Positions 22,701 to 64,000 of a DNA stretch of 64,000 nucleotides are shown in pieces (position 1 is the stretch's first letter; the number at the start of each line of letters is the position of its first letter). A program made the position numbers and the translations under genes. Source of the DNA: Blasia pusilla. Lineage: Eukaryota. The notes below the pieces were generated by a model that was given only the letters and a program-made list of their open reading frames with translations, did no database searches and was not told where the DNA came from. The stretch covers positions 25,358,001 through 25,422,000 of the forward strand of contig CM114271.1 of assembly GCA_050084515.1 (NCBI GenBank), given 5' to 3'.

Positions 22701-22818
22701 GGCCTAGTGATTTGATTGAGGGACATGTCCATGGAGAGGACACTCCCATTCTTGACATTTCTAAGAAGAGGAGTGTCATGGTAGCCGCATCAGTCCGTGG
22801 AGGAGAGGTGGCACCGTT

Positions 22819-35466: not shown

Positions 35467-36412
35467 GCATACACATCGCTGCACAACATACATCGTTGTC
35501 ACCGAACACACACACAAACACGCACGATCCCATCCTAACTCATGGCATCCAAACAACGAGACAAGAAGTACTAAAATATCTCCAATAAAATAAGATCCAA
35601 TCTCTCTCACAACACCATAGTTCTCACATGTGTGCACTCTCACATATCTCTCTCAATGTCAAACTAAAGCCACTCTCCTAATGAGAGGCTTGGGTTACAC
35701 ACATAAGGCAAGCAAGACCATAGGTCCACTGCCTCATGGCAAGAGATTCAACAAAGAGAGAATGAGCTCTCAAGCTCTCTCTCCTTGAGGTATATCCCTC
35801 CTCTCTCCCAAGCTCTCTCCATGGTAACCTATGCTCCCAAGTCACCTCCTTGGCTCTTGACTTGATGTAGGAGGTCAAGGACTACTTACCAAAAATAGAA
35901 AGTAGATCATATACTCAAAATGGTACTTATCTAAAATAGTAAGTTCCTCAATATGGCTCCAAATGAGCCAAAACAAAGGGGAAACCTACTCTCTCAAGTT
36001 TCCCGGGGCCTCAACAGGTCATCCTTGACCTACTGAGTCTGTCGTACACTACTTACGAAGCGCTCTACTAGATCTCACCGATCTGTCCTAAAAGACGTGA
36101 CAATTATCGTGCGCATACACATCACTACACAACATACATCGTTGTCACGGAACACACACACAAACACGCATGATTCCATGCTAACTCATGACATCCAAAA
36201 AATGAGACAAGAAGTACTAAAATATCTCCAATCGCCCCCCTAGCAGGTGGTTAGGTCCCTCTAACTACAGATAGGCATCTATCCCTACCTACCATGACAT
36301 ATATCTCTCGAACGCTAAGAGCAAGAAGGTCCGGTGCTCATGTGGCCCCATCGTTAGTCACCTTCTTGTTATCCATATCACAGACACAAGTCGGAATGTA
36401 GAACTACCTATT

Positions 36413-37790
36413 CTATGTACATCTGGGACACATCCATCGTCTCTAAAGAACCCTAGTGAGAGGTGGCGTCAAACATGCCATATGCCATCCTCTCGAACAC
36501 CCATCACAGACTAGCATAGTGGCTATATCATGGGCGGAACCACACAACATACACCGCAAGCTTGCAGGAACTATTGCTAAGCTTGGATCAACTGTATCGT
36601 CAATGTTCAGAAGATGACATGGCGCACTGTTACGCACACTGTCCTTCCAAACCATATCATCGCTTCCCTCCAATAAGAGAACACCGAATGGCAAAACCTC
36701 ACGCACTCTCAAGATGGTGCGCCATGCAGTCACATCCAACATCGTGGATGCCGTCTGCTGCAAGTAGACATAGTCTCCCTGATGAAACCTCAAGATAGTA
36801 GGTCGATAACCACCTCCCCAAATAGTCGCATACCTCAACGTATCCCGATGTTGTGCAATCGCCAAGTTCTCAAACGCCATGGGCATCACTCTCCAAAACA
36901 AGTCAGCCTCTGATAACATGCTCGCATCCATACATCAGGGTCATCAAGGTTCAACACCTCACCAGTATCTCGACAAATGGCCGTGTGTAAATCTGGCTCT
37001 CGGACATAAAGCGACAAGTATGGTGAGAAAGACGCTAAGGATGCCTACCTGCTGAATCTGTATTCCATCGCCAACCACGGCAACTAAAGGTCCTAATCTC
37101 TTAGATGACCTCTCTACAAGCAATACTTGCATAGTCCTCTCTTCACCGTCTTCACACCCCCCCCTCTGCTAGTCCATCCGTCTCAGGATGATCTCGCGAA
37201 GTAATGCGGTGGTCGATTAGTGCCTGATCACACAAGGCCTGAAACTCCCCACACAACTTTGTACCCTGGTCTGTCAACACCTCCGCTGGTGTGCCGTAAT
37301 GACTTAGCACTCGATTTAGGAAGGCATACGCTACTCCCTCACTCGCTTTGTCAGGCAATGCAACCAACTCTATCCACTTCGAGAAGTGCTCGACCATCAC
37401 CAACACATAACGACTATGGCGCTCTGTCAAAGGCAAAGGTCGTGCAAAATCCAAACTCCATCTGTAACCTAAACCCATGATCGGAAGTGGATGCAACTGT
37501 GGAGTTGGAACATTGAACGATGCTCAGACTTGATCACACACCATGCATCTGGCAACAAACTGCTAAACATCAATCTGCATGCCTCGCCACCAATACTGAA
37601 TCTAGAGCAAGTTGTACGTCCGCTTCACTCCAAAACGACCCAACTCCTCGTGGGCATGACGCACCAAACGTGCTCACTACACGCACGCTACCATCCTCCC
37701 ACAACTCATAACGCATATCTGCCCTCCCACTGGAACCATCTGGCTTGTTATAGGATCTGATCCCGCTCTCTAGCACCCATTGTGCTCGCG
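36413..37790 (-). pseudogene. Integrase + PHD finger of element 2
   Basis: WSLDFARPL...VMVEHFSKW...VLTDQG...DHPETDGLAE, then CMLCGS...LVCDGCSRGWHMACLTPPL..*RRWMCPRCT*. Confidence 0.9.
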
Positions 37791-38020
37791 ATGTTGCCAA
37801 TACACAAGTACTCCAAGACCACTCCATCATCGTGAATGTCTCAGCCACCTGTCATCTCCTCACCGACCTTTGGATCTAAGGACTCTCCATTAGACCTCGC
37901 CATCAAAGTCTCAACAATCTGGCTCTCCATAGCTAACAAGCCCAAATAGGCTGACGCATGCCATCTTGGCACCAACTCCTCATCACTCTCACCATGCCAA
38001 CGAGCTCCAGTCGCATCTCG

Positions 38021-39406
38021 CTAACTCGGGCATGGGTTACGACTCAAACCATCTGCATCCTGGTTGAGCATCCCTGGTCTATGCACCACTTGGAAGTCAT
38101 ACTCCTGCAACAAAAGAGCCCACCTTGCAAGCTTCCCTGTAAGCTTGTCGGACTCCATCAACCACTTAAGTGGCTGATATTCAGTAATGATGGTAAAGGG
38201 ATTCCCGAATAGATAACATCTAAAATGTGCGACAACCCACACTGTAGCCAAGCACTCACCCTCATACGAGCTATACTTCGCCTCTGCAGCGTTGTTCGAG
38301 CAACTAGCGTAAGCCACCACGAACTCTCTACCATCATCGTCATGCTAGGTGAGCATGGCTCCAAGCCCCAACATGCTCTAATCGGTATGCAAGTGGAAAG
38401 TACGCCCCTTGATCGGTCTCTTCAATATGGGCGCGGACGTCAATTTTTCCTTGAGCATCTGAAATGCTCTTTCTTGCTCATCCTCCCACTGCCACTCCTG
38501 ATCCATCTTGGTCATCAAGGTTAGCGGCTTCACAATTGAACTAAAACCCTTGACGTACCGTCGATAGAAGTTCACAATCCCATGAATGCATGAATTCGAA
38601 TCACATCAATAGGGCGCGGAATGCGTGAAATAGCCTCTACCTTTGTTTATTGCACACCAAGGCCCCCAGGGTATATTGTATGATCAAAGTACTCAATCTG
38701 GTCATAGAAGAACTTGCACTTGCCTAGATGTAGCTTCAGTCCATGTAATTGCAATCGTCAAAAAACCTCCTCTAAATGTCCCTCATGCTCCTCAACTGTG
38801 GCACTAAAGACTACGATATCATCAATATAATACCTAGAAAAATCCAGACCTACCAAGATCCTATCCATGACCCTCTGAAACTCAGCCAAGGCGCTCTTTA
38901 ATCCAAATGGTAAGAACCGGCACTAGTACAAACAATCCTTCCCGTGAGGATCGATGTCCCAAAATGCCGTCTTCTGCCTGTCCTCCAATCTGATAGGCAG
39001 TTGATGGTATTCGGCTTGCAAATCCAATGAACTGAAGACCTTTGCATGCCCGATCGCATCAAATATCTCCTTAGGAGTGGGCATGGCATACCTATCAAAC
39101 TTTGTCTGTCGATTGATAGGTCGATAATCTCCACACATCCGCCTATCCGTCCAATTGCCATGCACATCCTTCTTGACGCGCATGACAATGGCAGATGCAT
39201 ACTCTCCATGCAAAATCTCCACTAGTCCTGCTCCAACCAAGTCCTGGCTTCTACTTTGAATCAGAGCCCTCTCCATATCACTATACCTATAGGGTCATCG
39301 AAGATCAGCGTGTCACTCTACAACTCAATGCGGATCCCTGGACCCTTCAACATACCCAAATCATGCATACTAAATGCAAAACAACTCCTATAACTCCTAA
39401 GGAGCT
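38021..39406 (-). pseudogene. Reverse transcriptase + RNase H of element 2
   Basis: RRMCGDYRPINRQT, FSSLDL..YHQL, YIDDIVVFS (~38810-38830), NFYRRYVKGFS, LHTD, YSSYEGECLA, LARWALLLQEYDF, DADGLSR. Confidence 0.92.
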
Positions 39407-40137
39407 TGTCGTGCGAATCGTTGACATACCATACTCACATACATACATAACATAGACGAGAGCATCCACAAACATAACTGTACCACAACTGAAATCCGTG
39501 AAAGACCTACTGTCATAAAACACATATAGAATCACGCACAATCGAGCCAAACCCACTCCACGATGGGAGAATCTAGGTCGAAGCTTGCGGGGAAGACCAT
39601 AGCCAAGAGCTCTACTCACTACCAAGGCTAACTCCCAATGCAACAGGCTCAACTCAAAGAACTGACTGTTCTTTGGATGCACTCCACACTATATCCTCCA
39701 ACCGAAGAGCGGGCCCTACTGGGAAAGTTACCCCAACTAAGTAACCCCCAACCCTATGTATGAAACCACATCTCTACCTAGCCACTACGGTCCTACATAA
39801 GGTATGGCCTCTACTAGCACACTATATTCTACGACATAATCCGTATGGTTACGACAACTATCATGCGAATCCACCTTGTCATATAATATACATCGCTGAC
39901 ATACCATACTCACATACATACATAACATAGACGAGAGCATCCACAAACATAACTATACCACAACTCGCCCCCCTAACTGGCGGTTAGATCCCTCTAACTC
40001 CCAGGTAGCCCTATACATCTACTACGTGCTATACACCTTCGTGGGTGCACGAATCAAAAGGCCGGGTGCTACGTTGCCCCATTGTTAGTCGCACATCTGT
40101 AATCCATATCATGCAAAGATCAAGTCATCTACCTCTC

Positions 40138-41561
40138 CTAAATACATTGAGGACAAACCCACCTTCTAGTAGGAACAACATCCATACGTGGAGTCAAACA
40201 TATCATGTGCCAACCCCTAGAACACTGATCACACACCAACATACGGGCTGCGTTACCAGCAGACCCACACAACATGCACCTCAAGCTAGCACGTATCATG
40301 GCTAAGCTTGGGTCAACAGTACCATCCACATTTGGAAGATGACATGGCGCACAATTACGCACATGGTCCTTCCAAACAACTCCATCACGATCCTTCAACA
40401 TGAGAACTCCAGAAGCTAACACCTCGCGCACTCGTAAAATAGTGCGGCTTGCCGTCACATCCAACGTTGTCGGTGCAATCTGCTGCAAATAGACATAGTC
40501 CCCCACATGGAACCTACGAATCGATGGTCGATAACGTTCATCCCGAAAGGTTGCATACCGCAACGTATCTCTATGTTGAGCAATGGCAAGATTCTCAAAG
40601 GCTGTTGGCATAACTCTCCGAAAGAGCTCTGCCCGCTGAGAACATATCCTCATCCACATCTCTGGGTCATCAAGGTTCACCACCTCACTAGACTCCCGAC
40701 GAATTGCTGCTGGCAAGTGTGGATCTTGGCCGTATAATAGAAAATAAGGTGAGAAGGAAGCCAAAGATGCTTGGCGACTGAACCTATATCCCATGGCTAA
40801 CCATGGCAACTGAATATCCCTGTCTCCAAGGTGCCCCTTCTGTAAGCCATACTTGCACAATGCCCTCTTCACCGTCTGAACCACACGCTCAGCCAAACCA
40901 TCCGCCTCTGGATGATCTTGAGACGTGGTCCGATGATCAATCAACGCCTTGTCACACAAGACCTGAAACTCACCCTGAAACTCTGTACCCTGGTCGGTTT
41001 GCACTTCAGATGATGCACCAAAATGACTAAGCACTCTATGAAGAAACGCGTACGCCGTACCCTCACTTGCCTTGTCAGGTAATGCCACCAACTCAATCCA
41101 CTTGGAGAAGTGCTCCATCATCACCAACACATATCGATATGTCGTACAGTCAACGGTAACGGTCCCGCAAAGTCCACACTCCAACGGTAACCCAACCCCA
41201 TAATACGCAAGGGGTGTAACTGTGGTGTAGGGGCATTGAATGATGCCCTCACCCGGTCACAAACCATACAACGTGACACCAACTGCTGCACTGAGTATGC
41301 ATGCCACGCCACCAATATCGACCAAGGAGTAAGCTATACGTACGCTTTACCCCCAAATTGCCCCAACTCCTCATGGGCATGTCGCACAATGCGCTCTCTC
41401 TGAGCCAAATGCGGCACTACTCGTACTCTACCATCCTCCCACACACGGAGAATATGTGTTCCCTCCAATCGATACCTCTTAGCACGTTGAAGAACACGAT
41501 CTCGCTCCTTGGCACTCACTATGCCTGGCACCCTACTGGTCCGTATGAACTCCAACACCAA
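40138..41561 (-). pseudogene. Integrase + PHD finger of element 3
   Basis: 348-aa ORF with DDE core (MMEHFSKW...TDQGTEF...ADGLAERVVQTVK) ending CMLCGS...LVCDQCSRGWHMICLTP...WVCPQC. Upstream HHCC fragments. Confidence 0.92.
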
Positions 41562-41627
41562 CGCATCATCATGAATATCACGCTGATCCGCACGCCATCT
41601 CCAACCTTAGGATCTCAAGGTGGCCAT

Positions 41628-42880
41628 CTACCCTCGACTAGAGTAAGATGTCATGTGGTCCTCCATACTAGAGTCCACCCCTAACCAACATAAAAAGGCG
41701 GATGCATGCCAACCTGGCACCATCTCCTCATCAACCTCGCCATGCCATCTAACCCCAGTTGCATCCTCTTGGCTAGTATATGGGTTCCTACTCAACCCAT
41801 CAGCATTAAGGTTGGCAACTCCAAATCTATGTACCACATGGAAGTCATACTCCTGTAAGATAAGAGCCCACCGTGCAAGCTTCCCTATAAGCTTGTCGGA
41901 CTCCATCAACCACTTGAGCGGCTGGTGATGAGTAACAAGGGTAAACTGTGTGCCAAACAAGTAACACCTAAAGTGTGCCACAACCCACACTATTGCCAAG
42001 CACTCTCCCTCATATGAACTATAGGGCGACTCCGCTGCATTATTCGAACGACTTGCATAGGCCACCACAAACTCCATGTGCTCATCATCATGTTGTGTCA
42101 TACCGCTCCAAGTCCCAACCTACTCCAATCAGTGTGTAACTGAAATTGGCGCCCTCTAATAGGTCTCCTCTAGATAGGCGCCGCCACCAACTGGGCCTTA
42201 AGCTCCACAAAAGCTCTCTCTTGATCATCTCCCCTGTGCCACTCTTGATCTGATTTCAGCAATTGGTTCAAAGGCTTTGCCATAGCACTAAATCCCTTCA
42301 CATACCTCCGATAGTAGTTCGCCAATCCCATGAATGCCCGAACTCTACTCACATCTACCGGACGCGGAAAAAGTGCAATAGCCTCCACCTTTGCTTGCTG
42401 AACTCCCAAACCACCTGGATAGATCACATGACCCAAGTACTCAATATCCTCATGGAAGAACTTACACTTTCCTGGAATGCAAACGTAGACCATGAGCTTT
42501 CAACCGCTCAAACACCATCTGCAAATGTATGTGATGCTCCTCCACCGTGTTACTGAACACCAAGATATCATCAATGTAACACCGAACAAAATCCAACCTT
42601 GCTAGGATCCTGTCCATCACTCTCTGAAATTTGGCAGGTGCATTCTTCAACCCAAAGGGTAAGAATTTCCACTCGTACAAACAATCCTTGCCATGAGAGT
42701 GGACACCCCAAAATGTTGTCTTGGCCTTGTTACTCTCCCAAATTGGCAATTGATAGTATCCAGCCCGAAGATCCAAAGTACTGAAAATCTTTGTCTGTCC
42801 CACCACATCAAAGATCTCCTCAGGTGTAGGCATGGCATAGCTATCGGCCTTGGTTTTCCGATTGATAGGACGGTAATCTT
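41628..42880 (-). pseudogene. RT (N-terminally deleted) + RNase H of element 3
   Basis: DYRPINRKT...LDLRAGYYQL...LPFGLKNAP...CYIDDILVFS; ANYYRRYVKGFS; YSSYEGECLA...ARWALILQEYDF...NADGLSR. Confidence 0.92.
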
Positions 42881-42899
42881 CCACGATAATAGTCCGAAG

Positions 42900-43880
42900 T
42901 CGACGCTGATCGGCCATACCAAGACTCAAAATCCAAGTCAAACAATTCAAGTCCATGGCCTGATCCAACACAACGTCATGAAGCCTCAGAAATGGAAGCA
43001 ACCGTTGTCACACCAGTAGCAAATCCCATCGCACGCTCTATCTCATCAGCATTAGGCTCCACCAACTGTCGCACATGAGAATCCCATACAAGCCCAGGAC
43101 CACCTTCCCTGTATGCATGTGACGAGGGAAAACTCACAAATATGGGTAGTGCCATCCTAGGTTGGCCCACACGATTCACCACTGCCATGGGTGACCGATC
43201 AATAACCCTCACTACCTGAGAAAGTCGCCTAGTATCCAAGATACTATCCACTGTAAGGCAAGGATCCCGCTGCACTGCATCATATGCTCGACGTAGAACC
43301 TCCCTAGGCAACAAGTTTGTCCACCACAAGCGTGGACGATGTGCACGAGAGCCAACTCGCGCTGCATCCAACAACACCGCTGGTCCAATCCAAGACCGCA
43401 CCTCATGAACACTCGCCATCATCCGGGTCTGAGTGTCACCCAACAATGGAAAATTCTCCAGAATGTAAGCTAGAGTATGTGCCTGATGAACCTGAAGATG
43501 TCGTAACACCCGTAACATCTCCCAAAACAATCGAGACCTAGGGTCGTGTAATCCCTCACCACGACCACCACGTGTATGACCCTGACATGGCCATCCAGCA
43601 ATCACCAAATCCACAGGACCAACCCTCTCAAGGTCCTGCGCCCCCAACAATACAATGTGTGACGGCAAAGCACGTTGGTACCCACGAATAGCTGATGGCG
43701 GCAACAACTCAAGATATCTCCGCATCAACTGACCAATATGTCAGGATGAGACTCTCTGGGCCGTCTCATCTCGCTCCACATACACGTACCTCCGCACAGG
43801 AATACCGGCCTGCAACACTGCAGCCAAACCAGTGCTAATCCCACCAAAGAGATCTAACACACAAATGCCCTCCGACGGAT
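42900..43880 (-). pseudogene. DNMT3-like C5 cytosine methyltransferase domain within pol of element 3
   Basis: Motif I VLDLFGGISTG, II YVERD, IV DLVIAGWPCQG, V DPRSRLFWE, VI YILENFP, VIII DAARVGSRAHRPRLWWTNL, IX EIERAMGF, X VLDQAMDLNCL. At least one stop (43741) and one frame break near motif X. Confidence 0.93.
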
Positions 43881-44034
43881 ACTGCCATATAATGGGTATA
43901 GTATCCAAAGGGGATAACCCAACTGGACCAAAAGTAGGAGTCCGCCGTGGGGCCTCCTCTTCCTCGTGAGGTATAACAGCCTCACACCAAGCCTCTTGCA
44001 CTAGGCGATCAGCCTCTTGCGGTAGTGCACCGCC

Positions 44035-44820
44035 TCAACTCCAAAGTGGCACATCCAATGATGAGGATGCCACTGCTGCAAAAATAGGGACCTCCTCTAC
44101 CTCTTCATGCACAGGAGAATCCATAGCAGCAACATTACCCTCCAAAAAGTCTCTTGGCCAAGTGACTACTCCACTAAAACCAGCCAGAGATGCTAACACT
44201 GTTGGGGAAGACCCTCTTGGTCGAGCCCCATAAATAAATCTCACAGTAACTTGGCTCATATGTCCATCCCCGGACTGCCAACCAGGTCTATAAGACGCTG
44301 TCTCAGTCCAATAATCCATGTGAAAACCCATCCGGTACAATATTGCTCCTCTAACTAGTATATCATATTACTCGCATGATGTGACCACTGCACGTACTCC
44401 CAACCGAGATCTATCAGTCGCATGATCTGGTCTCAACAGTACAGAAAACTTCTGCCGTGTCATGAATTGAGACCTATCATTGGCTCCTCCAAGTGATGTT
44501 TGAATCTGGAATGGGCAAGGCTCAAGCTCTGACCTCCGAATACCCAAACCAATACATGTCGCCTTTCCCAACATCAAAGGTTGGGCACCAGAGTCTAACA
44601 AGACTCTATATGGTCTATACACCTGTCTTGTAGGACTTACCAATCGGAATATCCCATTCCGGTTGTCCAACATACATACACCAGGTGTAAGCCTCTCGCG
44701 ATCAATGGCTGGTCGGGTTGGTAATGCATCCATCTTCACCGCTGCTGCCTGCCAAGTAGCACTGATACTTAATGCTACACTTGACATAGAGGGTCGCTCC
44801 ACCGCAACACCCTCATCCAT
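44035..44820 (-). pseudogene. Aspartic protease of element 3
   Basis: RVLLDSGAQPLMLG...CPFQIQTSLGG. Confidence 0.85.
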
Positions 44821-45282
44821 CTCAGCACGTGCAGCAGTAACACCCCCACGTTCTTACAACGTGGCTGCTAACTGAAATACAGGAGCTAAGTTAACTCCTA
44901 AAGCCATTAGTTCCGTGGCCAAAAACAATGGGGATCCCAACACTGAAGTTGCCATCCGCAATACTGCATTGGATGCTGCAGCCGTGTCTACTACACGCGA
45001 TGTAGATGCCTCAGTCCCCAATGTCGGCTCAATAGGCTGCGTAGGAACCATGGATGGAGTCCTAAGCACCTCAGACAACAAGAATGACTGGGAAAGCCTA
45101 GCCTGCCTCCTAGCCTCATCCCTCTGTGGGTCCAACTCCACCGTAGCACCACGTGGCTCTGACGCTCGAGTGGCTCCTCTCGTAACTGCAGCCGATGCCT
45201 CAACTTGTGTTGCACTCGCCATATAAGAGAGATCATCCCCTCCATAAGAGATGGAAGCCCCTGCTCCCGAATCTGATCTATG

Positions 45283-46519
45283 CTAGATACCAGCCATAGT
45301 AGCCAACTTCTCCTCCAACTGCTCAATCTTGGCAGCCATAGCTGACTCTGTCATAGTGGTAGGGGTGGCCACCGTAGGCTCTCCAACCACCGGTCCACCT
45401 CTACCACCTCTACCACCTCTACCACCTCGGCCAATGCTCTCGAGGATGACTTGGTCTCCCGCAATGATCACACTAAAATGGGGCCGACTGAGGCCCATCC
45501 TCCAAAGTCCGTCTCCCATCCTCTTGGGGATAAAACTTCATAACATGATCACCTCCACATGTCCAACATGACTGTCCTTGCTACGGGGCAGCAAATGAAG
45601 GCAATGGTCTCTGCGCAAGTGTCCCTCTAGGACCTGACTGAGGTCGTGTGTACCCCCCACGACTCCCACTACTACTACCACCACCACTACTACAAGATTG
45701 TGAGGTGGGCTGCTGAACATGAGAAGTAGTAGTTGTATCCCTAGTGAATGCGGATGTCACCACTCTCTCCTTCACCATGTTAAGCTCAATCTTCTCAGAT
45801 AGAGCAAACACATGGGTCAATGTGGGTGAATCATCACTCATAAGAGTAGCATCACGTACCCTGCGGCGCAACTCTCTGTCCAAGATCCCATACCAAAACT
45901 GGATTGCCTAAGCCTGAGTCACACCCTAGGTAATTGATCAAGCGTCGCATACGAGTGTATGCCTCACGAAGACTCTCACCAGTCTTTCGCTCAAATTCCT
46001 GAAGACTCCTCAACTTCTCTATCTTCACTCCCTGATAGTTCTTCTTCAACCTCTTGAAGAACTCTGCAATCGGGCTGAACGATGGTCGGGCACTAGTACC
46101 TCCACTAGTACCCCCATTGGTACCTCCATGGGTACCTCCACTCGTACTCCCACTCCGGCTCGCACTCGTACCACTCAACGTCGGGCTGGTTAGCATAGTA
46201 GGAGCACTACTACCAATACCACCATGGGTGATAGACACATAGCCTGGAGACCAATATTGTCTCCACGCCTCAATCTCAGCAACATGATCCTTCCTAAACT
46301 CATGGTAATCATCCATGGGTGGTCCCTCCAAGTGCTAAAACAACCCCTTCCAAGCCAAGAAGGGTTCCGCAACATCTGCATATCACACCATGTATCAAAC
46401 TCCTGCATGAAATCCTCCAACTCAATGGTGCCCACTGCACTCGAGTATCGTCGTGGGCCCTTCATGGTCCCATATATTCTGTCCATGTCCCAAATCAATG
46501 GAGCTGCAACGTTTAACAA
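45283..46519 (-). pseudogene. gag of element 3
   Basis: AVGTIELEDFMQEFDTWCD, MDDYHEF, GVKIEKLRSLQEFERKTGESLREAYTRMRRLI (retrotransposon gag-like) and an RGG-rich nucleocapsid region. Confidence 0.8.
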
Positions 46520-48899
46520 CGTAGAAGACTCGGTGTTTGGAACACCCTCGTCCTTCTATTCATCAACTGTCGGAAGTGGAAAAGGTAGCCGATACCTCAA
46601 TCCACTCTGTGTAAAACCACCACTGTCCGCACCACGGTCCCCAACCTGACCACCAGACAGCTCCGTGATGACCAACGCCGATGCCGCACCACCACCAAAT
46701 TACCTCCACTAAGTAACCCAGTGACGTGGATGTCGTTGTACTATTCTAGCTCTACTAGCTATAGGTGTAGGCAACCTAACCTGTCATCACCACAAGAAGC
46801 CTCCCACGGTCTACTGGTCATCACTCCAGCCTCATTACTGCTAGCACACAGGAATAACACTACTTTGGAAATCAGCATCAACCCTAACAATGGGCGTGCA
46901 AGCAAGAAGCAACGATGGAGGGGATCCAAACACAAGAAGTCCAACGACAATCCTCCAATCGCAAATGGAAATCAAGGTAACACAATCCACCAAACGTGGC
47001 ATCCCCTGAATCCACAAAACCCACCACACAATTCTAACGCAATAGCTACTCCGCCGCGGGTCGATGACGCGCTAGTCGAACTTGGAGCACCATAAAATAT
47101 CACCTGTATGGAGAGGCTACACCGTACTATGTGCTAGAGGTCCATCAACCAAAAACCTGAGATGCATAAAGTGCCTAACACCTCTCCGAAGAGCACCAAA
47201 TGATCTACACCAATGTGTACACTGGCATAGTTAAGAACTCAGCAGTTAAGCGTCTTCCAAGCAGAATAGCCCAAAGATGGGTGACCAGTTATGCAACACT
47301 CAAATCACAAATCCTGCAGAAATTGCCTCACACCCAAGCAAGCAAGCAAGCTGCTTGCTTGCTTGCTTGCTTGCTTGCTCCTTGCTTCTTACTCCGCCTC
47401 TTTCTCCCACTCGCCCCGAGCTACCACGAGTTGCCTCGAAGCCTCAAAACGCCGAGAAATGCTTGAGACATGCCCCTATCGCCCGCTTCGCCATGCTTCG
47501 CTATGGAGAGAGGCCCAACCAGGGTAGGCATCTCCAACAATGAACGAGTCACCAACCAACCAGCCCCTCCAATCCGTTGTTGACCTTGAGCTAGTCCGCG
47601 AAATTTCGATCAGCAATTACTCCACAAATCCTCTACCAAAATTGAATTTTTTTCAACCAGAATTCAATTGACCACCATTGCTATCTCTCCACAAAAAATC
47701 AGCTACAACCAAGCTCTGCACTCCGAGCTAAAAATCAGACAAACTTGTTGTCCATACACCTCAAGAATCGCAAATCCGACAGCAATTCCGCCCAGTTTCA
47801 TGCACGTAGAAATCTGCAACGCTCCACACACTCAAGCAGATAGCTTCACATGAGATCACAATACAAGTAGCAATAGGAACCTCTCACCCAATCTGGATGA
47901 ACTTCAACACAGCTTCCGCACTCCAAGCTCTCCACATCAGAAAACCGTCGAACACGAACCAGAATCTTCAATCCTTGATAACTTCCAACTCCCTTGACGA
48001 AATCTGGCAATCTAAAGCGCGTTGGAAAGCTCTCACCAAGGCGCTTCTTTCCCAACCAACCACGCAGCAGATTCCTACCTCCAACATAGGCCACATGCCA
48101 TGAACATCCACGGATGAGTACACAATCAGCCCTAACCAGATCCTACTGATCCACAATCGAAGCTACCATGGATCTACTCTAGTTCTTTGAGTGAAATCCG
48201 TGAAAGACCTACTGTCATAAAACACATATAGAATCACATACAATCGAGCCAAAACCCACTCCACGATGGGAGAATCTAGGTCAAAGCTTGCGGGAAACAC
48301 CATAGCTAAGAGCTCTACTCACTACCAAGGCTAACTCCCAACGCAACACGCTCAACTCAAAGAACTGACTATTCTTTGGATGCACTCCATACTATATCCT
48401 CCAACCTAAGAGCGTGCCCTAATGGGAAAGTCACCCCAACTGAGTAACCTCCAACCTTATGTATGAAACCGCATCTCTACCTATCCACTACGGTCCTACA
48501 TAAGGTATGACCTCTACTAGCACACTATACTCTACGACATTATTCGTATGGTCATGACAAACTAGTGTATCCGGCTCCGCTCTCCTCCTGTCAACTTAGG
48601 GCCCATATCTAGCTCCCAAGTCTCCATCGTGACTACGGTAGGACTCTCCGGCGCGGGTATTGGTGGTTGCTATGGTGCAACCCCGTCTCGGACAATAGAA
48701 CTCTCATCTCCACGTGCAATATCCAGAACCACACTCGATGTTGTGGCTATCATTTCCTGGTGTACCTGCAAAACATCCCAAGAAGTCCAAGGGTGTCTCT
48801 CCCAATCATCCTTGGTGTGTTGATCTCCTCGGGTGTCGCCCCAAGCCACTGCCTCAACCATCTCGATAGGCGTGGGGCTCACCAACGCAATAGTTGCAA

Positions 48900-49885
48900 T
48901 CTGTCGTATCTTCACATGACGTTGCTCAGCTACTCCTAAGCTGAAAATCCATGTCAACCAGTTCAGGTCCATCGCCTGACCCAAGACATGACATCGTGAT
49001 GCCTCCGATAGTGATGGTACTTTCGTCACTCCTGTGGGGAATCCCATCGCTCGCTCTCCCTCATTGGTGTTGGGCTCCACCAACCTCTGTACCTGGTCAT
49101 CCCAAACCAAGCTAAGTATGGCGTCTTTGAATCCATAGGAAGCGGGAAAACTCACCAATGTGGGAAAGGCGGCTTGTGGCATGCCAATCCTGTTGACCAC
49201 AGTCAACGGCGGTCAATCATTGTGCCTCACTGCTTGTGATTGACGGCGCGGATCTAATATAGAATCCACCAACAAATCAAAGGGACGCTCCACTCTTGCA
49301 TAAGCCCTCCGCAATACCTCATGTGGTAACAAGTTGGTCCACCAAAGACGCGGGCGATGTGCTTGTGAACCCACACTCGCCGCATCTACCAACACTGCAG
49401 GCCAATCCATCCGCGCACCTCATGTACACTCGTCACCACGCGAGACCTCAAATCTCCCAAAATTGGCACATTCTCCAAAATGTATGTTGGAGAACGAGAC
49501 TAATGATCTTGTAAATGTCAAAAGATCCGCATCATCTCCCAAAACAATCGGGACGGAGTGTCAGCTAACCTGCTACCTCATCCAGCACTTGATTGGCCCT
49601 GACACGGCCAACTAGCAATGACCAAGTCTATGGTCCCTACCCGCTCCAAGTCTTGCATCCCAAACAATGAAATGTCCCTCGATAGGGAACTCTGGTAACC
49701 CTGAATGGCGGACGCAAACAACAAGTCGAGAAAATGGAGGTGTAACAACGCCATATGGTGAAGTGAAGCGCGCCTTGCAACATCATCAATCTCCACATAC
49801 AGGTACTGCTGCACGTGCACTCCAGCGTGCAAAACAGCAGCTAACCCAGTGTTGATCCCTCCAAAGAGATCCAACACCCAAATAC
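48900..49885 (-). pseudogene. DNMT3-like C5 cytosine methyltransferase domain within pol of element 2
   Basis: IWVLDLFGGINTG, YVEIDD, DLVIASWPCQG, YILENVP (~49468-49488), DAASVGSQAHRPRLWWTNL, ERAMGFPTGVT, CHVLGQAMDLNWL. Confidence 0.93.
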
Positions 49886-50229
49886 CCTTCTCAGGGATGC
49901 ACCACGCAATCGGGGTGGTATCCAAAGGGATCATAGCAGCACTCCTGCCTACCTGGGGTTCCTCTAACCCGTCACACTCTAGTGCAAATTTCTCGCTCCA
50001 CACGGTCTGCATGTGCTTAGTGGCTAAGCATCGGAGCTCCTCAGTCGAGCCCCAAAGCGACACCTCGCCTCCACAAACTACCATGACACTCCTCTCCATA
50101 GAAATGTCAAGAACGGAAGTATCCTCTGCGTGGACGTATCCCTCAATTAAATCACTAGGCCAAGTGATGGCACTGCTAAATGCTGCTAAGGTTGTGTCAT
50201 GGTAGCTATGGAAAATCCCATCGGGTATA

Positions 50230-50691
50230 ACACTGCTCCACCAACCAAGACGTCGTAGGACTCTACATCAGTCACTATCGCCTTGGCTCGCACCACAGAC
50301 TCATCTGTAGGATGTCTGAGCAAATCCTCACCACGACCTCCTGTCCGGTGATATACTGTGTGGTACTCGCTCTACCCAAGGATGTCTGTATCTGGAATGG
50401 ACAACGCTCCACATCGGCTCTCGTCAGGCCCAATCCTCTTAATGACGCTTTCTCCAACATCAGGGGTTGCGCTCCTGAATCCAACAAGACGCGCTGCGGA
50501 CTAAAAGCTCTACCTCCGAGACTCACCAATTGGAAGACCTCTCCCTTGTTATCCAACAACACAATACCAAGAGAAGCCATTGCACGCTCTATCCCGGGTC
50601 TAGCGGGCATCTTTACCATCCTTGCAGGCGCAACCTGCCATGGATCTGACGTGGACGGGCCGAGCATCCGCTCCAAGGGCAGGTCCATCAC
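50230..50691 (-). pseudogene. Aspartic protease of element 2
   Basis: QRVLLDSGAQPLML...CPFQIQTSLG. Confidence 0.85.
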
Positions 50692-50928
50692 CTCCTATGC
50701 AATCCCCTTTGAACGTGATGCAAAAACTCCAACTCCACGCTCACATAGCGTAGCGGCCAGCCGAAAAGCCTCGGCGGGCGTACTCCCAACGTCATAACAT
50801 CGGAAGCAAAAAAATAAAGGAGTGCGGTACACAACGGTGGCCGCCCCCAACAACGTGCTCGATACATGCCGATCCTGAGCATCAGCAATAGGAGTCATCG
50901 CACTCGCTTCTCCCATTGCCCTTCGTGC

Positions 50929-52539
50929 CTACACATCAACAACATCACTAACTCTCCAGGAACTCTGATTAGGACCTATTGATGGGGTCCTCATCGCCTC
51001 GGACAACGTGAAAGAGTGAGAAAGCCTAGTTTGTTTCCTGGCTTCCCCTCGTTGTGGATCCAACTCTGCGGTTGCTCCACGCATCACAACTATGGCTGCC
51101 TCCATCTTGGCAACCCCGCACATCCAACCAGGATCTTCCATATCTCTGGCTGCACCATATGATGTTGATGCCACGGATCCGGCATCGGGTAATCTCAATG
51201 CCATAGCGGCAATCTGCTCCTATAGATGATGTATGTGAGCAGCCATCCTAGCCTCACTCCCGGAATCTCCCTCGATGCGTCTAGGTGGTGGGACTCTACC
51301 TCCTCCATGGGCAGGTCCACCACTCTATCGGGAAACTCCAGCTCCTCGTCCTCCAACGAGACCACATGGTGCACAATCTCTAGGCCCACCCGAACCGGCT
51401 AGTTGCTTTGGTGCCCTCTCTAGCCCTCGGTCCGAACGTAACTCAGGATGTCAACTGAAATACCTAGCGCGTGTATGACCATACCTCTGACAATAGTCAC
51501 ACTGATAACCTCTTGGTGCAGCACCATCTCCTCCTCCATGCTGAGGCATAAGTCCATGACCCTGACGATTGTAATCGCGCTGATGATGGGCTTCACCCCA
51601 TCACCAACAAGTAATAGTAGGCGGCTGCTACAAAGCCGCATATGAAGGCGCATGTCTCTGTGGCACGGCCTCCCGGTATCCTCCCTAAGCTCAGAGTCCA
51701 CGTTGTTGCACAAGTGGTGCAGACAATCGTGACTGCTCTGACCTAGAACCCATGGTGGCTACACTCTCCTCCGCCATGTTGCGCTCAATGTTCTCGGCGG
51801 TCCTAAAAACATCTCTCAACGTAGGAGAGGTGTTCATAAGAAGCACCCCCTCCCGCACCCGTGTCCGTAGGATCCGGTCCAGCATCGCGTACCATGACTT
51901 GATAGCCTGAGCCTCTATCACCTCCTGAGTGAAGCAAGTGTAAGCCTCACACAAACTCTCACCCGGGCGCCTCAAGAAGTCATGGATGCTCCACAACTTC
52001 TCCATCCGTACCCCCTGGTAGCTCGCCCTCAACTCAGCAAAGAACTCAACTACGGGGTTGAACCTGGCACGAACCCGACTAGATGGTGCAACTGCTCCAA
52101 TACGATTGAACCCTCCTAAAATATCACAAGTGGAAGAGGAAGTAGCCTCTCATGACTCCTCCTCCTCATGTGGGAATAGCTCCGTCCATGATACATAGTG
52201 TGGGTCGTAGTATAGTCGCCATGCCTCAATCTCCAAGGCATATCTGTGGGAGAACTCATGGTAATTGTCCATGAGTGCCCTCTCTAAATGCTAGAACATA
52301 CCGTTCCATGCTGTAAATGGGTTGAACTCTCTAGAGTTCCTAGCCCGCTATGAGTCACACCAACTCCTAAACTCCGCAATGAAGTCGTGTAGCTCTATGG
52401 TGCCTACAGCACCCGAGAACCTACGCGGTCCTCTACCCCGGTTGTCCATCTCGTGCGCCCAACTGGTAGGTGCACTCAATGTGTACGGTGGATCACTAAC
52501 ACACTCCTCTATACGCTCCCCCTCATCTGATGATGACAT
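50929..52539 (-). pseudogene. gag of element 2
   Basis: MSSSDEGE...FSGAVGTIELHDFIAEFRSWCD; YQGVRMEKLWSIHDFLRRPGESL. Colinear with element 1 gag. Confidence 0.8.
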
Positions 52540-55500
52540 GGAATGAGATCAAGGTGGTCTCTCACGTGAAGACCCTCAATCTACACTCTCTCACTAAGAT
52601 GTGTGTTGTGCGGCAACGAGCAACGTGGTGCAGAAAATCAACCCATCTATCGTCTCATCGACAAACCATCCTCAACTCTGAACATCCTAGACAGGTCTAT
52701 GTACGTCCCCTAAACCCATAAACCATAGATGCTCCTAGCATCAGCACAAAACCCAATATCCCAAATGACTTCCCAATATCTGAAAATTCCTCACACGTGC
52801 AGGGTAAGAGACCATAATGGGTAACTTGACAATAATATTGACGTTGCTCCTCGACAATTGCAAATCTCAACCCCAATTTGGTCGTGAAGATAACTCCTCC
52901 AATCAGCTAGTCGTACTCCTCGTGTACTGACGCTGCTTAAACCTCCTCGACATGCGGTGCAAGTCCAATGATCCGGTGCGGCATTGGCGGCACGGAACGA
53001 CTACAAACGGCACGACACTCGAGAATGGGGTGCGGGACTTAGCGGCATACCCTCCTCAATCAAAAATTCATACGCTCTACTCCTTAGTGAAGGAGCAGCT
53101 CCGCGATCGAGATGGTGCGATGCCGCCATGAGCGGCACGATGTGGCAATCCGCGGCGTGTTACGGCTACGGGCGTCACGGCACGGTACTCGATTGTCGTC
53201 GAGCAGCTACCAATTGCAACATAGAAACATGAAATGAAAACACCATAACCCAAGGCCACCATCACTGGTTGATGACGAAACTATGATGACGGTGACAGCC
53301 AAACCAAAGTACGTAGTGGCGGGGCAAGTCAGCAAATCAACGGTGGTCGTGGAAGACCCTCCACTCCGTAATGGCGGCAATGGCAACCAAAGGGTGGACA
53401 ACGGCCAAACGCAGCTCTGAGCAGCGCTAGGCGACGACAGCGGCCGACGATGGATGGTGGATGGTGGACGGTGGACCATTGACGGTGACGGTTGATGATA
53501 ATGGTGACGAAGGACCGTTGATGATGATTATGACGGCGACGGCCGCCGTCGCCGCTGTTGCTGGTTTAGGGTTTGAATAATTTAACCCTACTTCTGCCTA
53601 GCAATGGAAGTTTTGCAAGATGGACCATAACTTTTTGCTCGCAACTCCAAAATGCACATTTTTTGTTGCACACTATGCAAACCTTTAAGAGCTACAACAA
53701 CATCAAAAATATTTGGAATGGGATGTTCATGTAAAAACTCAATCCCTATCAAAAATTGGGCAGCGCTTCCGCGCGCCACTCTTCTACACAAAACATTGCC
53801 AAAGAAAACATCACAAGTAAGCGACTCTTGCTTTGGTGAGCACTCCCATGAACCGCTGAACGGGGAATACGATCCCCAACCTGCAAAACCAACGAGTGAC
53901 CAGCGAGCTCCCCCATGAAGCTCTCTCACTCACTCATTCTCTCTTAGTAAAATAAGATCCAATCTCTCTCACAACACCGTAGTTCTCACATGTGGGCACT
54001 CTCACATGTCTCTCTCAATGTCAAACCAAACCCACTCTCCTAGTAAGAGGCTTGGGTTACACACACAAGGCAAGCAAGACCATAGCTTCGCCGCCTCATG
54101 CCAAGAGGTTCAACAAAGAGAGACTGAGCTCTCTCAAGCTCTCTCTCCTTGAGGTATACCCCTCCTCTCTCCCAAGCTCTCTCCATGGTAACTTATGCTC
54201 CCAAGTGACCTCCTTGGCTCTTGACTTGATGTAGGAGGTCAAGGGTCACTTACCAAAAATAGAAAGTCGATCATATACTCAAAATGGTACTTACCTAAAA
54301 TAGTAAGTTCCTCAATATTTCTCCAAATGAGCCAAAACGAAGAGGAAACCCGTTTCCCGGGGCCTCAGTAGGTCATCCTTGACCTACTAAGTCTGTCCTA
54401 CTCACAAAGTGCTCTACTAGATCTCACCGATCTGTCCTAAAAGACGTGACAACCCTTTCCATAATAATTCACTCACTTTAATTAGATGGTGAAATAGCAA
54501 AATCTAATATACAAACAAACATATAATTAACTTTTGATTATTCACCTCGATTAGTAAGATATAAGCGGCCAATGGGATGCCCGCAACCATTTCTTTTTTG
54601 TATCCTATGAATCTATCTCTTTTTTGTTCAATGATAATATGAAGGAAAATCTATAAAAAGATATTCAAGGTTGCATGCGGACAAAGTCTGCATTTGCGGA
54701 CTTTTCCGTCCCGAGGAGGAACATGTCCGTGCGGGCCCGGATGCGCGCTCCATGAGCCCACGTTGCTCACGGACTGCACCTGGGACTACCCACACCAAGC
54801 ATTCCACCCTTGCTTGGCTAGTGCGCATCACGCTCGGCGCTTGTTTTTCAATCAAGCCCGTTTTTTTCACTTGCTAGGATCTGATTGTTGTGAGATTTTC
54901 TTCAGCAAGGTAGGTGCTCATGAAAGAAACTATGACTTTGGATCTCTACTAGATAGTGCACTAGGAATGAATCAATTGGCTATCTTAGAGTATGGACCAT
55001 AAGGATTAAAGATACGTCGTTCATATCATAAACAAGATCATGTTTAGGAAAAATTGTATCCTTTTGGTGAGGGAGACCAAGCTCCAAATCTATTTGATTA
55101 TTCAGTGGGTGAAGAAATAGATGTCAACATTGACCCGAAATCCATGGAGATGGAGATATTAGGACATAAAGTAAGGCATGTGTTTGCATTTGTTCAAGCA
55201 GAAGTGACTAATGGGGCGATTCCCCATGCAATAGTGCCGATTGTAACTTATGAGAGCAAGATTATCTATAAATCTACCCTTGTAAGTCAATTGTCTTGCA
55301 ATCCTTTCATGTCAAAGGACAAGCTTACTCGAATAGCCCAAAAGACATAGTACACTACTGGTAAGGGAAAGGAACGTGATCCTAATTTTCTAACTTGTAT
55401 GGTTGATGTTGGTAGTGATATCGCAATTTTGTTTGAATCTACAGTAGACGTTGGCCCTTCCACAAGAAAGGGACAATGTCTGCAAGTAAGTGATTGCTTT

Positions 55501-60740: not shown

Positions 60741-60743
60741 TGA

Positions 60744-61702
60744 AGAAGTCCAAGGGTGTCTCTCTTGATCATCCTTGGTGTGTTGATCTCCTCAGATCTC
60801 CTTCCTAGCCATTGCCTCAATGGTCCTGATAGGCATAGGGTTTACCACAAGAATCGATGTGATCGTCGAATCCTCAAACGATGCTGCTCAGCTATTCCTA
60901 AGGTGAAAATCCATGTCAAGCAGTTCAAGTCCATCACCTGATCCAAGACATGGCGTCGTGATGCCTCTGATAGTGACGGTATTGCCGTTACTCCTGTGGG
61001 GAATCCCATCGCTCGCTCTCGCTCATCGGTGTTGGGCTCTACCAACCTTTGTACCTAGTCATCCCAAACCAAGCCAAGAGCATCCTCCTTGAATGCATAG
61101 GAAGCAATAAAACTCACAAATGTGGGAAAGACCACCCGTGGCATGCCAATCCTGTTAACCACAATTAACGGCAGTCGATCATAGTGCCTCACTGCTTGTG
61201 ATTGACAACTTGAATCCAATATAGAATCCACCAACAAATGAGAGGGAATCTCCACTCTTGCATAAACCCTCCACAACACCTCATATGGCACCAAGTTGAT
61301 CCACCAAAGACGCGGGCGATGTGCTCGTGAACCCATACTCGCCGCATCCAACAAAACTGCCGCGCCGATCCATGAGCGCACCTGATGTGCACTCGTTACC
61401 ACACGGAACCTAAAATTTCCCAAAACCGGCACATTCTCTAGAATGTATGCTAGAGGATGAGACTGATGCTTTTGCAAGTGTCACAAGATCCGTATCATCT
61501 CCCAGAACAACCTGGACCGAGAGTGAGCTATTCCGCTACCCCGTCCAACACTCGATTGGCCCTGACATGGCCAACCAGCAATGACCAAGTCTATGGTCCC
61601 TACTCGCTCTAAGTCCGGTGCCCCCAACAATGAAATGTCCCTCGATAGGAAACTCTGGTAACCCTGAATGGCGGACGTAGACAACAAGTCAGGAAAACGG
61701 AG
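60744..61702 (-). pseudogene. Orphan fragment of the gypsy DNMT domain (motifs IV-X)
   Basis: DLVIAGWPCQG...RSRLFWEMIRIL, YILENVP, DAASMGSRAHRPRLWWINL, ERERAMGFPTGVT...RRHVLDQVMDLNCL. Colinear with 48781-49740; no motif I and no terminal repeats. Confidence 0.9.
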
Positions 61703-61875: not shown

Positions 61876-64000
61876 CTTCCTAATATCACTCTCTTGGAAA
61901 TTTGGACTCCTTGCAAGATTTCATAATATATTACGTCTTACTACCCTATCAACAGTAGACGCCTGATGAATTTTAGAAGCATTTGGTATAGTGGCACTTT
62001 CTATAGGTAACATAACTCCATTACAGGTGGAAGAAACATAACCTAGTCTTGATATTTCTTTATTCCCAAGATAGGGAAGAGTCAAATAATTTTCAACGAC
62101 TTCATGTACACCTTCAACTATTTATCTGGAATAGGGAGATAAATAGGTAATTCAACTCTTGGTGGTACATAAGTAGTTGGGCTGATCGTACAAGAATTCT
62201 CAATAACTTCATGGAGTGCATGGTGAGGTAACTCAAGTATTGGTCTTGGCGACATGTAAATATTCTCTGTGGATCCAAGATGAATCTTTAGATTTTCTCC
62301 TACCAAGACTACATTTGCATTGGAAGGCTAAAAAAAATTAGCATATTATAAACAATAGACAATAAATGAGCAATGAAAATTTTTTGAGAGGATATAAAAA
62401 CTAAGATAGATACCATATGATTTGACTTCGGATAGTCAAAACTAGAGTCAAAATCTCCATATTTGGAGTAGTTGAAAAAGTGTCAAGTACCAAAGGAGGC
62501 TCAACTTGATCATGAAGTGCTTTCCTTCTTTTCCTATACTCATAATAGTAGGTCCTCTTTTTTTCTTTGAGAACTTCCATTCTATCCACTTGGTTGTCCA
62601 TCCAGAATTTTCTTGGCAACTTAGCTCCTTTCTCTGCCTCGCCCTCCTATGGCATGGCTCTTGTTCAACGTCTCCGCCCTCACTTTCTGCCTCAGCAATT
62701 TTCCCTTGCATTCTTGATTTTCCTTTGGTTTTTTGCTCCTCTTTGGTATGTTGTTTCTGATCAGGTTGTGCATGATGTCTCCTAGGTGGGTAGGGCTTTA
62801 GAACGCACGCTATCATTGCGGCTTGCATTGAGGTTTCTGATTAGGTTATGAACAATGGATCCAGATGGGTAGGGCTCTCGTGCACACGTGAGCTTCTTGG
62901 TGCCTTCTGCAGAAGCCGGGTCTTTATTCATATGGGGTTCATCTTTTTTTCCTTGTTGGAATCCAATGGCTCAGCAGTAGGGATGTGAGTACTATTTTTT
63001 TAGGCCCGTGGTTGTTGTGCTTGTTAGGCCTGTGGCTGCACATTTTGTAAGGGCCGAGTATGCATATTCTAAAAGAGCCACGGCTGCACATTCAGTAAGG
63101 GCAGCAACTGCTCTTTTTTAAGCCTACGGCTGCACATTTTGTAAGGGCCGTTGCTGCACATTGTGTAACGGCAAGGACTGCCCTTTGTAGGATGTGGTCT
63201 CTTCCCTTCCCCCTTACTTCCACGGTAGAGGTGGATGCAACGTCCTTGAATGGCATAATGGTTGAGTCTTTTCTTATCTCAGAGTACTCGAGTTGAGTAC
63301 TTCTCGATTGGGAGAGGAAATCTGGTAGTTAGATGTAGACACAGATATACATAGTTCCAAAGCAAAGCTTTATGCCCCTAATAAGCATTGTCTAAGTCGC
63401 TTTACATATTGCTTAAGTTGCCTACTCTTCTCCTAATCCAAACATTAGAGCATAAAATTAATGTTGACTATCACATCCTTATGCTTTTGCCCCCCTTGAG
63501 TGGACCTTACAATCACATGTGGATGTGGGGTAGAATTGATTGGCATCCTCATGAACCCCTTTCAGACAATGAGCAATAATCCTGGACATTGGGTTGAGGT
63601 GTCTTCAAACGTTTCTTCATAGATCCAGCTTGCAATGTGTGCGCTCTTTTGTTGTTGGGAGTTTGAAGGTGATACTCAAGGTTTCCTCTTTCCAAGCCCT
63701 CAATTGGCTTTGGAAAGTTTTCTTTATCTGAAAATGTGGGCTCTCTCAAAGCTGGGAGAGAATCCTTTATGGCATTCTCGAAGCATGGGGCATGTTCAGA
63801 GTTGAGCTTTGTCCCCCAAGGAGGGCTTACACCAAAATGTGACTTCCTCCATTTACTCAGCCACATGCAATCCTCTTGAGATATGGGAGACCACTTGGAA
63901 CTCTTGAGTTCTTAGGGATCGAGACTCTTTACACCATAATACTTCTTTGAAGTATCTTTGTCGACACTCTTTCCTTCCCCTACATCAATTTTTTGTTGTT

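Follow-up and report, generated by a model that had tools for sequence, protein, structure and literature searches.

How does a retrotransposon with a DDE integrase come to end in split direct repeats, a layout otherwise familiar from elements with a tyrosine recombinase? The question is raised by a 64,000-nucleotide stretch of the liverwort Blasia pusilla (contig CM114271.1, positions 25,358,001 to 25,422,000; the whole stretch is referred to here as the window), in which three elements carry one repeat segment, A, at the 5' end and a polypurine tract (PPT) followed by B, A, and B at the 3' end. These elements are Ty3/gypsy-type long terminal repeat (LTR) retrotransposons with a DDE integrase and a PAT/Ngaro/TOC-like repeat layout. 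The layout is real and general for the lineage, recurring in two deep clades. For its origin we favor, with a probability of about 0.5, a combined explanation in which reverse transcription would make an LTR of the form B+A, the end of A would be joined to the start of B, and integrase would cut at a palindrome inside the LTR.

A repeat map was made by self-BLAST of the window, and borders were then read directly from the sequence. The layout A...PPT-B-A-B was found in 3/3 elements (16715-25150, plus strand; 54451-35467 and 48559-39407, both minus strand); none has two complete LTRs, as an earlier note on this DNA had described with coordinates that agree with ours. Their features are given below, with A1 and B1 the upstream and A2 and B2 the downstream copies and minus-strand parts in the reading direction of the element.

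16715-25150, plus strand: element 1 (family 1), internally deleted
16715-17229, 24399-24524, 24527-25040, and 25041-25150, plus strand: A1, B1, A2, and B2 of element 1
17230-17244, plus strand: primer-binding site (PBS) of element 1, a putative self-primer site, with its complement within A1 at 17050-17065
24389-24398, plus strand: PPT of element 1
24521-24530, plus strand: junction of element 1, GACA-AC-TGTC
35467-54451, minus strand: element 2 (family 1), split by element 3
54451-53948, 36231-36105, 36102-35586, and 35585-35467, minus strand: A1, B1, A2, and B2 of element 2
53947-53933, minus strand: PBS of element 2, with its complement at 54128-54116
53932-48560, minus strand: 5' half of element 2, bearing the DNA methylase (DNMT)
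39406-36242, minus strand: half of element 2 with reverse transcriptase (RT), RNase H, integrase, and PHD finger
36241-36232, minus strand: PPT of element 2
36108-36099, minus strand: junction of element 2, GATA-AT-TGTC
39407-48559, minus strand: element 3 (family 2), nested in element 2 between the DNMT and RT regions
48559-48192, 39964-39859, 39856-39490, and 39489-39407, minus strand: A1, B1, A2, and B2 of element 3
48191-48180, minus strand: PBS of element 3, with its complement at 48367-48356
39974-39965, minus strand: PPT of element 3
39862-39853, minus strand: junction of element 3, GATA-GT-TGTC

No B lies upstream of A1 in any of the three. Within elements the repeats are 3-16% apart and are therefore separate copies rather than assembly duplications: A1 and A2 are 84% identical over 461 nt in element 1, 90% over 520 nt in element 2, and 93% over 373 nt in element 3, and the corresponding values for B are 89% over 97 nt, 92.5% over 120 nt, and 97% over 74 nt. 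The two families had been described as sharing no repeat sequence; this holds for long sequence, while the terminal motifs (TGTC... and ...GCACGACA) are common to both. Likewise, B-A-B was seen at every 3' end, as had been claimed, except that B2 of element 2 is short of the final 8 nt (GCACGATA) present in its B1.

All reading frames are broken; they were translated through, with X at stops, and scanned against Pfam. Element 3 yielded, in order, DNA_methylase (PF00145), RVT_1, RT_RNaseH, Integrase_H2C2, rve, and PHD. In element 2 the methylase lies in the 5' half and RT through PHD in the 3' half, a split indicating that element 3 inserted at a point downstream of the methylase and upstream of RT. 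Element 1 retains Integrase_H2C2, rve, and PHD only, its RT having been lost. The gypsy order RVT_1, RT_RNaseH(_2), Integrase_H2C2, rve was found in elements 3 and 2 and in two related metagenome loci (L015 and L057, see below), and PF00145 was matched upstream of RVT_1 in element 3 (E = 7.9e-6), element 2 (8.4e-8), and L057 (1.9e-6). L015 gave no match to PF00145 at E <= 0.01, although a DLFGG...PWQ stretch is readable there, and the methylase domains of the window elements are partial and decayed. The order in pol is C5-DNA methylase, RT, RNase H, H2C2 and D,D35E integrase, and a C-terminal PHD finger. Relatives of the integrase-PHD frame were found in Marchantia polymorpha (77-91% identity), Calypogeia fissa (53-81%), Sphagnum fallax (65%), and Klebsormidium nitens (47-49%).

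An alignment with 17 relatives gave an integrase consensus with D (LDFAGP), D (TDQG), and E 35 residues on; the first D is present in the majority and the second in at least 90% of the aligned relatives, and the E falls outside the listed conserved columns. In element 3 the D,D35E triad is readable across one frameshift. Among solved structures, the Ty3 intasome 7q5b matches best (E = 4.8e-22), in an alignment that runs through the D, D, and E residues, and the PFV integrase comes next. A tyrosine recombinase (Phage_integrase, PF00589) gave no match at E <= 0.01 in the sense frames of elements 1 to 3, L015, and L057, and the antisense frames of element 3 gave no Pfam domain match whatever; this negative comes from decayed copies only, so that loss of such a gene is conceivable. 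The earlier assignment of a DDE integrase rather than a tyrosine recombinase is thus borne out by the Pfam domains, the Ty3 intasome match, and the empty recombinase scan. A recombinase reading frame in intact members had been named as counterevidence, and none turned up in the scanned frames, the copies being decayed and none of them intact.

The earlier note had also called for a count of this layout against conventional ones. For this count, 80 related loci were fetched from metagenome contigs with the integrase-PHD alignment, and A and B segments were mapped across all of them; near-identical loci and loci with a common 3' flank were removed as duplicates. The loci form two groups, with ~60-86% and 47-50% integrase identity to the query. 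Integrase, PHD, and RT were found in a member of each (L015 and L057, respectively), and a PF00145 match only in the distant L057. Downstream of the integrase, B-A-B was seen in 26/80 loci (20 distinct), B-A followed by the contig end or another element in 5, and a single B followed by unrelated sequence in 25 (23 distinct); the rest were indeterminate (1), odd, with an A fragment plus B (2), without a 3' repeat beyond the 5' A (4), restricted to an inverted B (1), or devoid of A and B (16). The 5' end was visible in 16 loci (13 distinct) and always read flank|A, never B-A and never A-B-A, and all 5 B-A-B loci that reach far enough upstream have a single 5' A. Both ends were visible in 11 loci, 5 of them A...B-A-B and 6 A...B. 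Conventional LTR pairs, either B-A...B-A or A-B...A-B, were found in 0/80 loci. These are short-read contigs, and the A...B class is open to assembly error. One locus, L031, is demonstrably mis-joined at the B repeat: it equals L027 (99.4%) to the end of B1 and from there runs on into sequence that flanks L014 on the 3' side. Layout counts on such contigs therefore call for caution.

Across the two window families and the two locus groups alike, A starts with TGTC(A/G)... and B ends with ...(C/T)GACA, so that TGTC...GACA forms inverted termini of the TG...CA type. The ends of the loci were placed by fuzzy alignment to the end motifs, and duplications were scored in a flush 4-bp register. A 4-bp target duplication was perfect in 7/11 complete loci (L005, L006, L014, L015, L038, L057, and L060) and matched in 3/4 letters in L003 and L078; in total, 35/44 letters were alike, compared to a mean of 11.6 across 80 shifted registers. 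The duplications accompany both layouts. Element 3 is flanked by AGTT (48563-48560) and AGCT (39406-39403), and at empty sites in paralogous copies 39403 and 48566 are only 5 letters apart (44, 34, and 43 RNA reads in three runs, plus one DNA contig). Since the window has 9 flank letters where the empty site has 5, insertion of element 3 duplicated exactly 4 bases. As defined by integrase, the element thus runs from TGTC, where A starts, to GACA, where B ends, with the 4-bp target duplication on either side, and these features favor staggered-cut integration by a DDE integrase over insertion of the recombinase type. A 7-of-8 match beside element 2 (TGGAAAGG/TGGATAGG) was left unused, as it lies off the ends and has an estimated chance occurrence of ~1 in 20.

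By the marks of a Ty3/gypsy element, then, two complete identical LTRs are missing (A only at the 5' end, B-A-B at the 3' end), and TG...CA inverted termini with a duplication of 4-6 bp are present, elements 1 and 2 being without the duplication. Of the DIRS marks, the split direct repeats A...B-A-B are present, and a tyrosine recombinase and duplication-free insertion are not. It could still be supposed that the elements move as DIRS, PAT, and Ngaro elements do, through circles and with a tyrosine recombinase acting in trans while the DDE integrase lies idle. The A...B-A-B arrangement is indeed that of the PAT/Ngaro/TOC type as drawn in one published figure (PMC5890265, legend to Fig. 1e). 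Against such movement stand the 4-bp duplications, the TG...CA-type termini, a D,D35E integrase conserved across deep clades, and the lack of a recombinase domain in any scanned frame; we consider it very improbable and, on the target duplications, close to refuted.

The same survey bears on whether the layout is secondary, that is, derived from conventional LTR elements that were rearranged once inserted, whether through unequal recombination, tandem arrays, or nesting. Solo and nested copies do exist in the window, among them the following unit.

15920-16568, minus strand: solo A-B unit of family 1 (A ~16568-16109, then B to 15920)

This unit stands head-to-head with element 1, ~140 nt away, and its A|B join is ~16 nt longer than in elements 1 and 2. 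No target duplication was seen at it, and a unit of this kind is the expected product of recombination between A1 and A2 or of integration of a free A-B piece. Rearrangement after insertion would nevertheless have had to produce the same exact borders in three elements and 20 distinct loci, in clades at ~47-50% and 60-86% integrase identity. In addition, 11/11 complete loci sit in their own flanks, 9/11 with a duplication of 3/4 or 4/4 letters, and the conventional parent form was not found among the loci. Of the accounts considered here, this one appears the least probable.

The internal border of the LTR suggests how such ends could be retained. At B1|A2 the two integrated ends stand back to back as GACA-NN-TGTC, with a length that is constant in all 20 aligned B1|A2 borders and in the three window elements. 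NN is mostly GC, which yields the perfect palindrome GACAGCTGTC; the junctions read GACA-AC-TGTC in element 1 and GATA-AT-TGTC and GATA-GT-TGTC in elements 2 and 3. No column inside B showed a fixed difference between B1 and B2 across the aligned loci, indicating that both are remade from one template in each round, as LTRs are. Each B1 was closest to its own B2 in 2/10 and 4/11 cases, a count that says little, because the copies radiate star-like from a master. The only border of variable length among copies of the distant group is A2|B2, with the variants CAAT|, CA|, CAT|, CAA|, and CAATTC| and a deletion in L078; the extra TC of CAATTC| corresponds to the first two letters of the PBS. The A|B join thus behaves in a manner that fits an end-join newly made from cDNA ends in each round. 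An A-B join is present as A2|B2 in every genomic copy and therefore cannot diagnose circles, for which the earlier note had proposed it as a marker.

A G-run PPT, AGGGGGGCGA, directly precedes B1 in all three window elements. At the other end, A1 is immediately followed by 10-16 nt whose complement lies within A in 8/8 elements tested, and three sequence pairs covary across lineages. The match is perfect over 16 nt in L005 and over 15 nt in L050 and L078, and covers 15 of 16 positions in element 1 (17230-17244 with 17050-17065), 12 of 13 in element 2 (complement 54128-54116), 11 of 12 in element 3 (48191-48180 with 48367-48356), 11 of 12 in L057, and 9 of 10 in L015. As a control, the stretch that follows A2 in element 3 gave no match of 9 nt or more with one mismatch allowed. 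The window holds no tRNA genes, so a tRNA primer could not be matched; CA|TGG... motifs 23-32 nt after A1 had been considered as a primer site and were dropped because the sequence adjoining A1 is itself complementary to A. Judged from sequence, the post-A1 site bears the signature of Tf1-like self-priming and not of priming by a tRNA, and we infer that its complement marks the 5' end of the RNA. A PPT abutting B1 together with a self-primer site after A1 implies that reverse transcription should make an LTR consisting of B+A, as the earlier note had proposed. The cDNA ends of such an LTR in the distant group are not of the TG...CA type (ATACATG...TTCAAT). In three loci of that group (L050, L057, and L078), a hairpin-like inverted repeat was seen by eye after the primer site, e.g., TCTGTTGCT...AGCAACAGA in L057; its arms differ in L050 and L078 yet stay complementary, and the hairpin may be a conserved leader stem.

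These features can be combined as follows. By analogy with standard LTR-retroelement replication, transcription would start inside A, at the complement of the post-A1 site. Priming would be Tf1-like, from the RNA itself, and the first jump would land in A2. Reverse transcription would then give a linear cDNA, B-A-int-B-A (int being the internal region), whose ends differ from those used by integrase. The end of A would be joined to the start of B, by circularization or by host end-joining, to give the length-variable A2|B2 join. Integrase would finally cut the palindromic site of the LTR on the PBS side, releasing A-int-B-A-B. This product is the sole arrangement whose transcript (R-U5...U3-R) retains the B|A site in full along with a 3' R. 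The explanation is, in slightly more general form, the circle-opening idea of the earlier note, in which a 2-LTR circle is opened at the B|A border. The palindrome of integrated ends, the 4-bp duplications, and the variable A|B join speak for that idea; no circle and no A-B-A...B copy does.

The variable join would also be accounted for if reverse transcription alone yielded the linear A-int-B-A-B, through an end-to-end switch from the end of A to the start of B, with integrase only trimming TGTC/GACA and no need of a circle or host ligation. End-to-end switches likewise leave small gains and losses at the A|B join and would keep B1 and B2 homogenized, and a directional polymerase process would account for the occurrence of A...B-A-B only and never A-B-A...B. 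Yet there is no homology between the end of A and the start of B to guide such a switch, and a stop exactly at GACA is unexplained unless integrase cuts there, which is internal-site cutting again. We regard a switch of this kind as unlikely.

Equally doubtful, in our estimate, is the proposal that the default product is A-int-B, made by cutting the internal sites of both LTRs, with A...B-A-B a minority by-product that serves as the sole replicating master form. Single-B copies are as common as B-A-B (23 versus 20 distinct loci), and 4/6 complete A...B loci have perfect 4-bp duplications. The transcript of such a copy would be without a 3' R, leaving it dead on arrival, and all copies are indeed decayed. 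On the other side, none of the three window elements (0/3) is A...B, short-read contigs can mis-join at B, and an inserted copy that loses the stretch from one B to the other ends up with an identical structure and duplication; moreover, a separate route to A...B-A-B would still be required. The single-B copies may have arisen by deletion between B1 and B2, directly from cuts at both sites, or through collapse in assembly.

Several observations weigh against the combined explanation of a joined cDNA cut at its internal palindrome. Neither circles nor free cDNA ends were seen. Because the B|A site occurs twice, in equivalent form, in a 2-LTR circle, A-B-A...B would be expected as often as A...B-A-B; this mirror product was found in 0/13 distinct 5' ends among the loci and in 0/3 window elements, which disfavors simple random opening and calls for an unexplained preference for the PBS side. 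The single-B class, with A...B or ...B and no A2-B2, comprises 25 loci (23 distinct). L050 and L066 have no duplication (0-1/4 letters alike), and element 2 is without its 3' tip and without a 4-bp duplication. Element 1 is flanked, in place of a 4-bp duplication, by an imperfect 11/12-nt direct repeat, GATCAAAC(A)CTT, at 16703-16714 and 25151-25161, directly adjoining both ends, which could reflect a longer staggered cut, an earlier local repeat, or another insertion route. Every copy examined has broken frames, and no intact member was seen. Finally, A1 and A2 cross-map and depth was binned at 310 nt, which leaves the 5' and 3' ends of the RNA unplaced.

RNA coverage was available from three runs with the same species label. 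The sense strand of the elements was covered at a depth of 9-202, compared to 0-18 on the other strand, and coverage climbs toward the 3' end of the element; most reads are 90-99% alike to the window and hence derive from other copies. A joint between 40528 and 46400 was supported by 6-7 reads per run, with no DNA contig carrying it in the run examined, and one between 40610 and 41636 by 15-32 reads per run, with the same 30 other letters between. Neither is GT..AG on the sense strand, and both are most simply explained as transcribed internally deleted copies rather than introns; they have no bearing on circles. The same applies to a joint that goes back 288 nt, from 39825 to 39538, most simply a copy with an internal duplication of A. 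Differences between reads and window are mostly transitions (X22: C>T 234, T>C 184, G>A 180, and A>G 128), an excess expected of methylated, decaying repeats. Across the elements (36000-54000), the GC skew of the plus strand is -0.11 to -0.29, the sense strand being G-rich and C-poor.

Other repeats were noted in the window, the first of which begins inside B2 of element 1 and extends ~1.7 kb past the 3' end of that element.

25122-26818: about nine units of a ~180-bp satellite, 60-85% identical to the reference unit
13491-13884: 195-bp tandem duplication, 96% identity
57087-57224: perfect 6-bp microsatellite, ~138 nt
60743-61702, minus strand: fragment of another family-1-like copy, 84% identical to 48780-49739 (DNMT side of element 2), with no end repeats found inside the window by self-BLAST
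62997-63186: cluster of ~24-nt repeats

Of known systems, the closest is the gypsy element KnitGypsy-Dnmt3, which carries a Dnmt3 methylase within pol and was described from Klebsormidium nitens (de Mendoza et al. 2018, PMC5890265). According to the legend to Fig. 4c of that paper, it combines DIRS-type repeats with gypsy domains, and the view that this layout is not one of gypsy elements, taken by the earlier note, is therefore out of date. "Streptophytes (Gypsy-DNMT3)" are also named in a 2026 preprint (bioRxiv 10.64898/2026.05.21.726589). The accessible text of these two sources does not give termini, target duplications, primer site, or mechanism, and their supplements may hold more; other literature on split repeats in gypsy or Gypsy-DNMT3 elements yielded nothing on termini or mechanism. 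The window elements are of the Gypsy-DNMT3 kind by PF00145 inside pol and DIRS-type repeats, an assignment independent of methylase phylogeny. They resemble the algal element in the C5 methylase within a gypsy pol, and K. nitens proteins are 47-49% identical to the window integrase-PHD; they differ in their host, a liverwort rather than the alga Klebsormidium, which adds a new host group. The layout with a DDE integrase is thus already in print for Klebsormidium, and the classification is known; what is new concerns the TGTC...GACA termini and their 4-bp duplications, the palindrome at the internal border, the site for self-priming, and the length variation of the A|B join. Correct boundaries matter for epigenomic work on these plants, since both a DNA methylase and a chromatin reader of the PHD type are encoded by this family, which is transcribed in the host species.

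The primer site recalls Tf1/sushi elements and plant Tcn1, in which a site by the 5' repeat is likewise complementary to the element's own 5' region and not to a tRNA. Tf1 primes itself with the first 11 nt of its RNA after an RNase H cut. Ordinary LTR pairs and a chromodomain are found in those elements, in contrast to the split repeats and PHD finger here, and the comparison is one of primer sites, not of phylogeny. For plants, self-priming has been predicted in the Tcn1 and TAR lineages, according to the accessible text of Neumann et al. (2019, PMC6317226).

With DIRS-order elements (PAT, Ngaro, and TOC-type elements, and SymbioDIRS-Dnmt3), the elements share the A-coding-B-A-B layout, as well as an internal B|A border that keeps both termini, which would otherwise be lost from a transcript starting in A1. 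A tyrosine recombinase operates there, whereas a DDE integrase, TGTC...GACA termini, and 4-bp duplications are found here; to our knowledge, DIRS-order elements insert without target duplication. By the textbook rule, a DDE integrase acts on the very ends that reverse transcription has made. In the present elements the two sets of ends are circular permutations of each other, and this holds for numerous independent insertions from two deep clades. If integrase does cut the internal palindrome, this would be a second, independent answer to the end-copying problem that a recombinase solves in DIRS, PAT, and Ngaro elements, and it would explain why LTR finders mis-annotate or miss the family in bryophyte and algal genomes.

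Retroviruses offer the nearest precedent for the cut itself. PFV and HIV-1 integrases cut the palindromic LTR-LTR junction of 2-LTR circles, as far as the accessible text of the two reports goes (PMC1180852 and PMC1905944). In both settings an internal palindrome holds the two ends back to back, and cutting it gives integration-competent ends; in retroviruses the palindrome arises only upon circle closure and belongs to a side path, whereas here it is permanent in the LTR and the step would be obligatory. That a whole lineage, from charophyte algae to liverworts, depends on a joined or circular cDNA reopened by integrase at the LTR palindrome is a tentative proposal, to which we give somewhat less than even odds. 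If true, it would represent obligatory circle-opening or internal-site cutting in an LTR retrotransposon, convergent with the tyrosine-recombinase DIRS elements, and the retroviral side reaction that uses the 2-LTR circle as a substrate would become a normal step of the life cycle. Cutting of the internal palindrome by integrase, if real, would also provide a natural system in which to study cleavage of end-to-end junctions.

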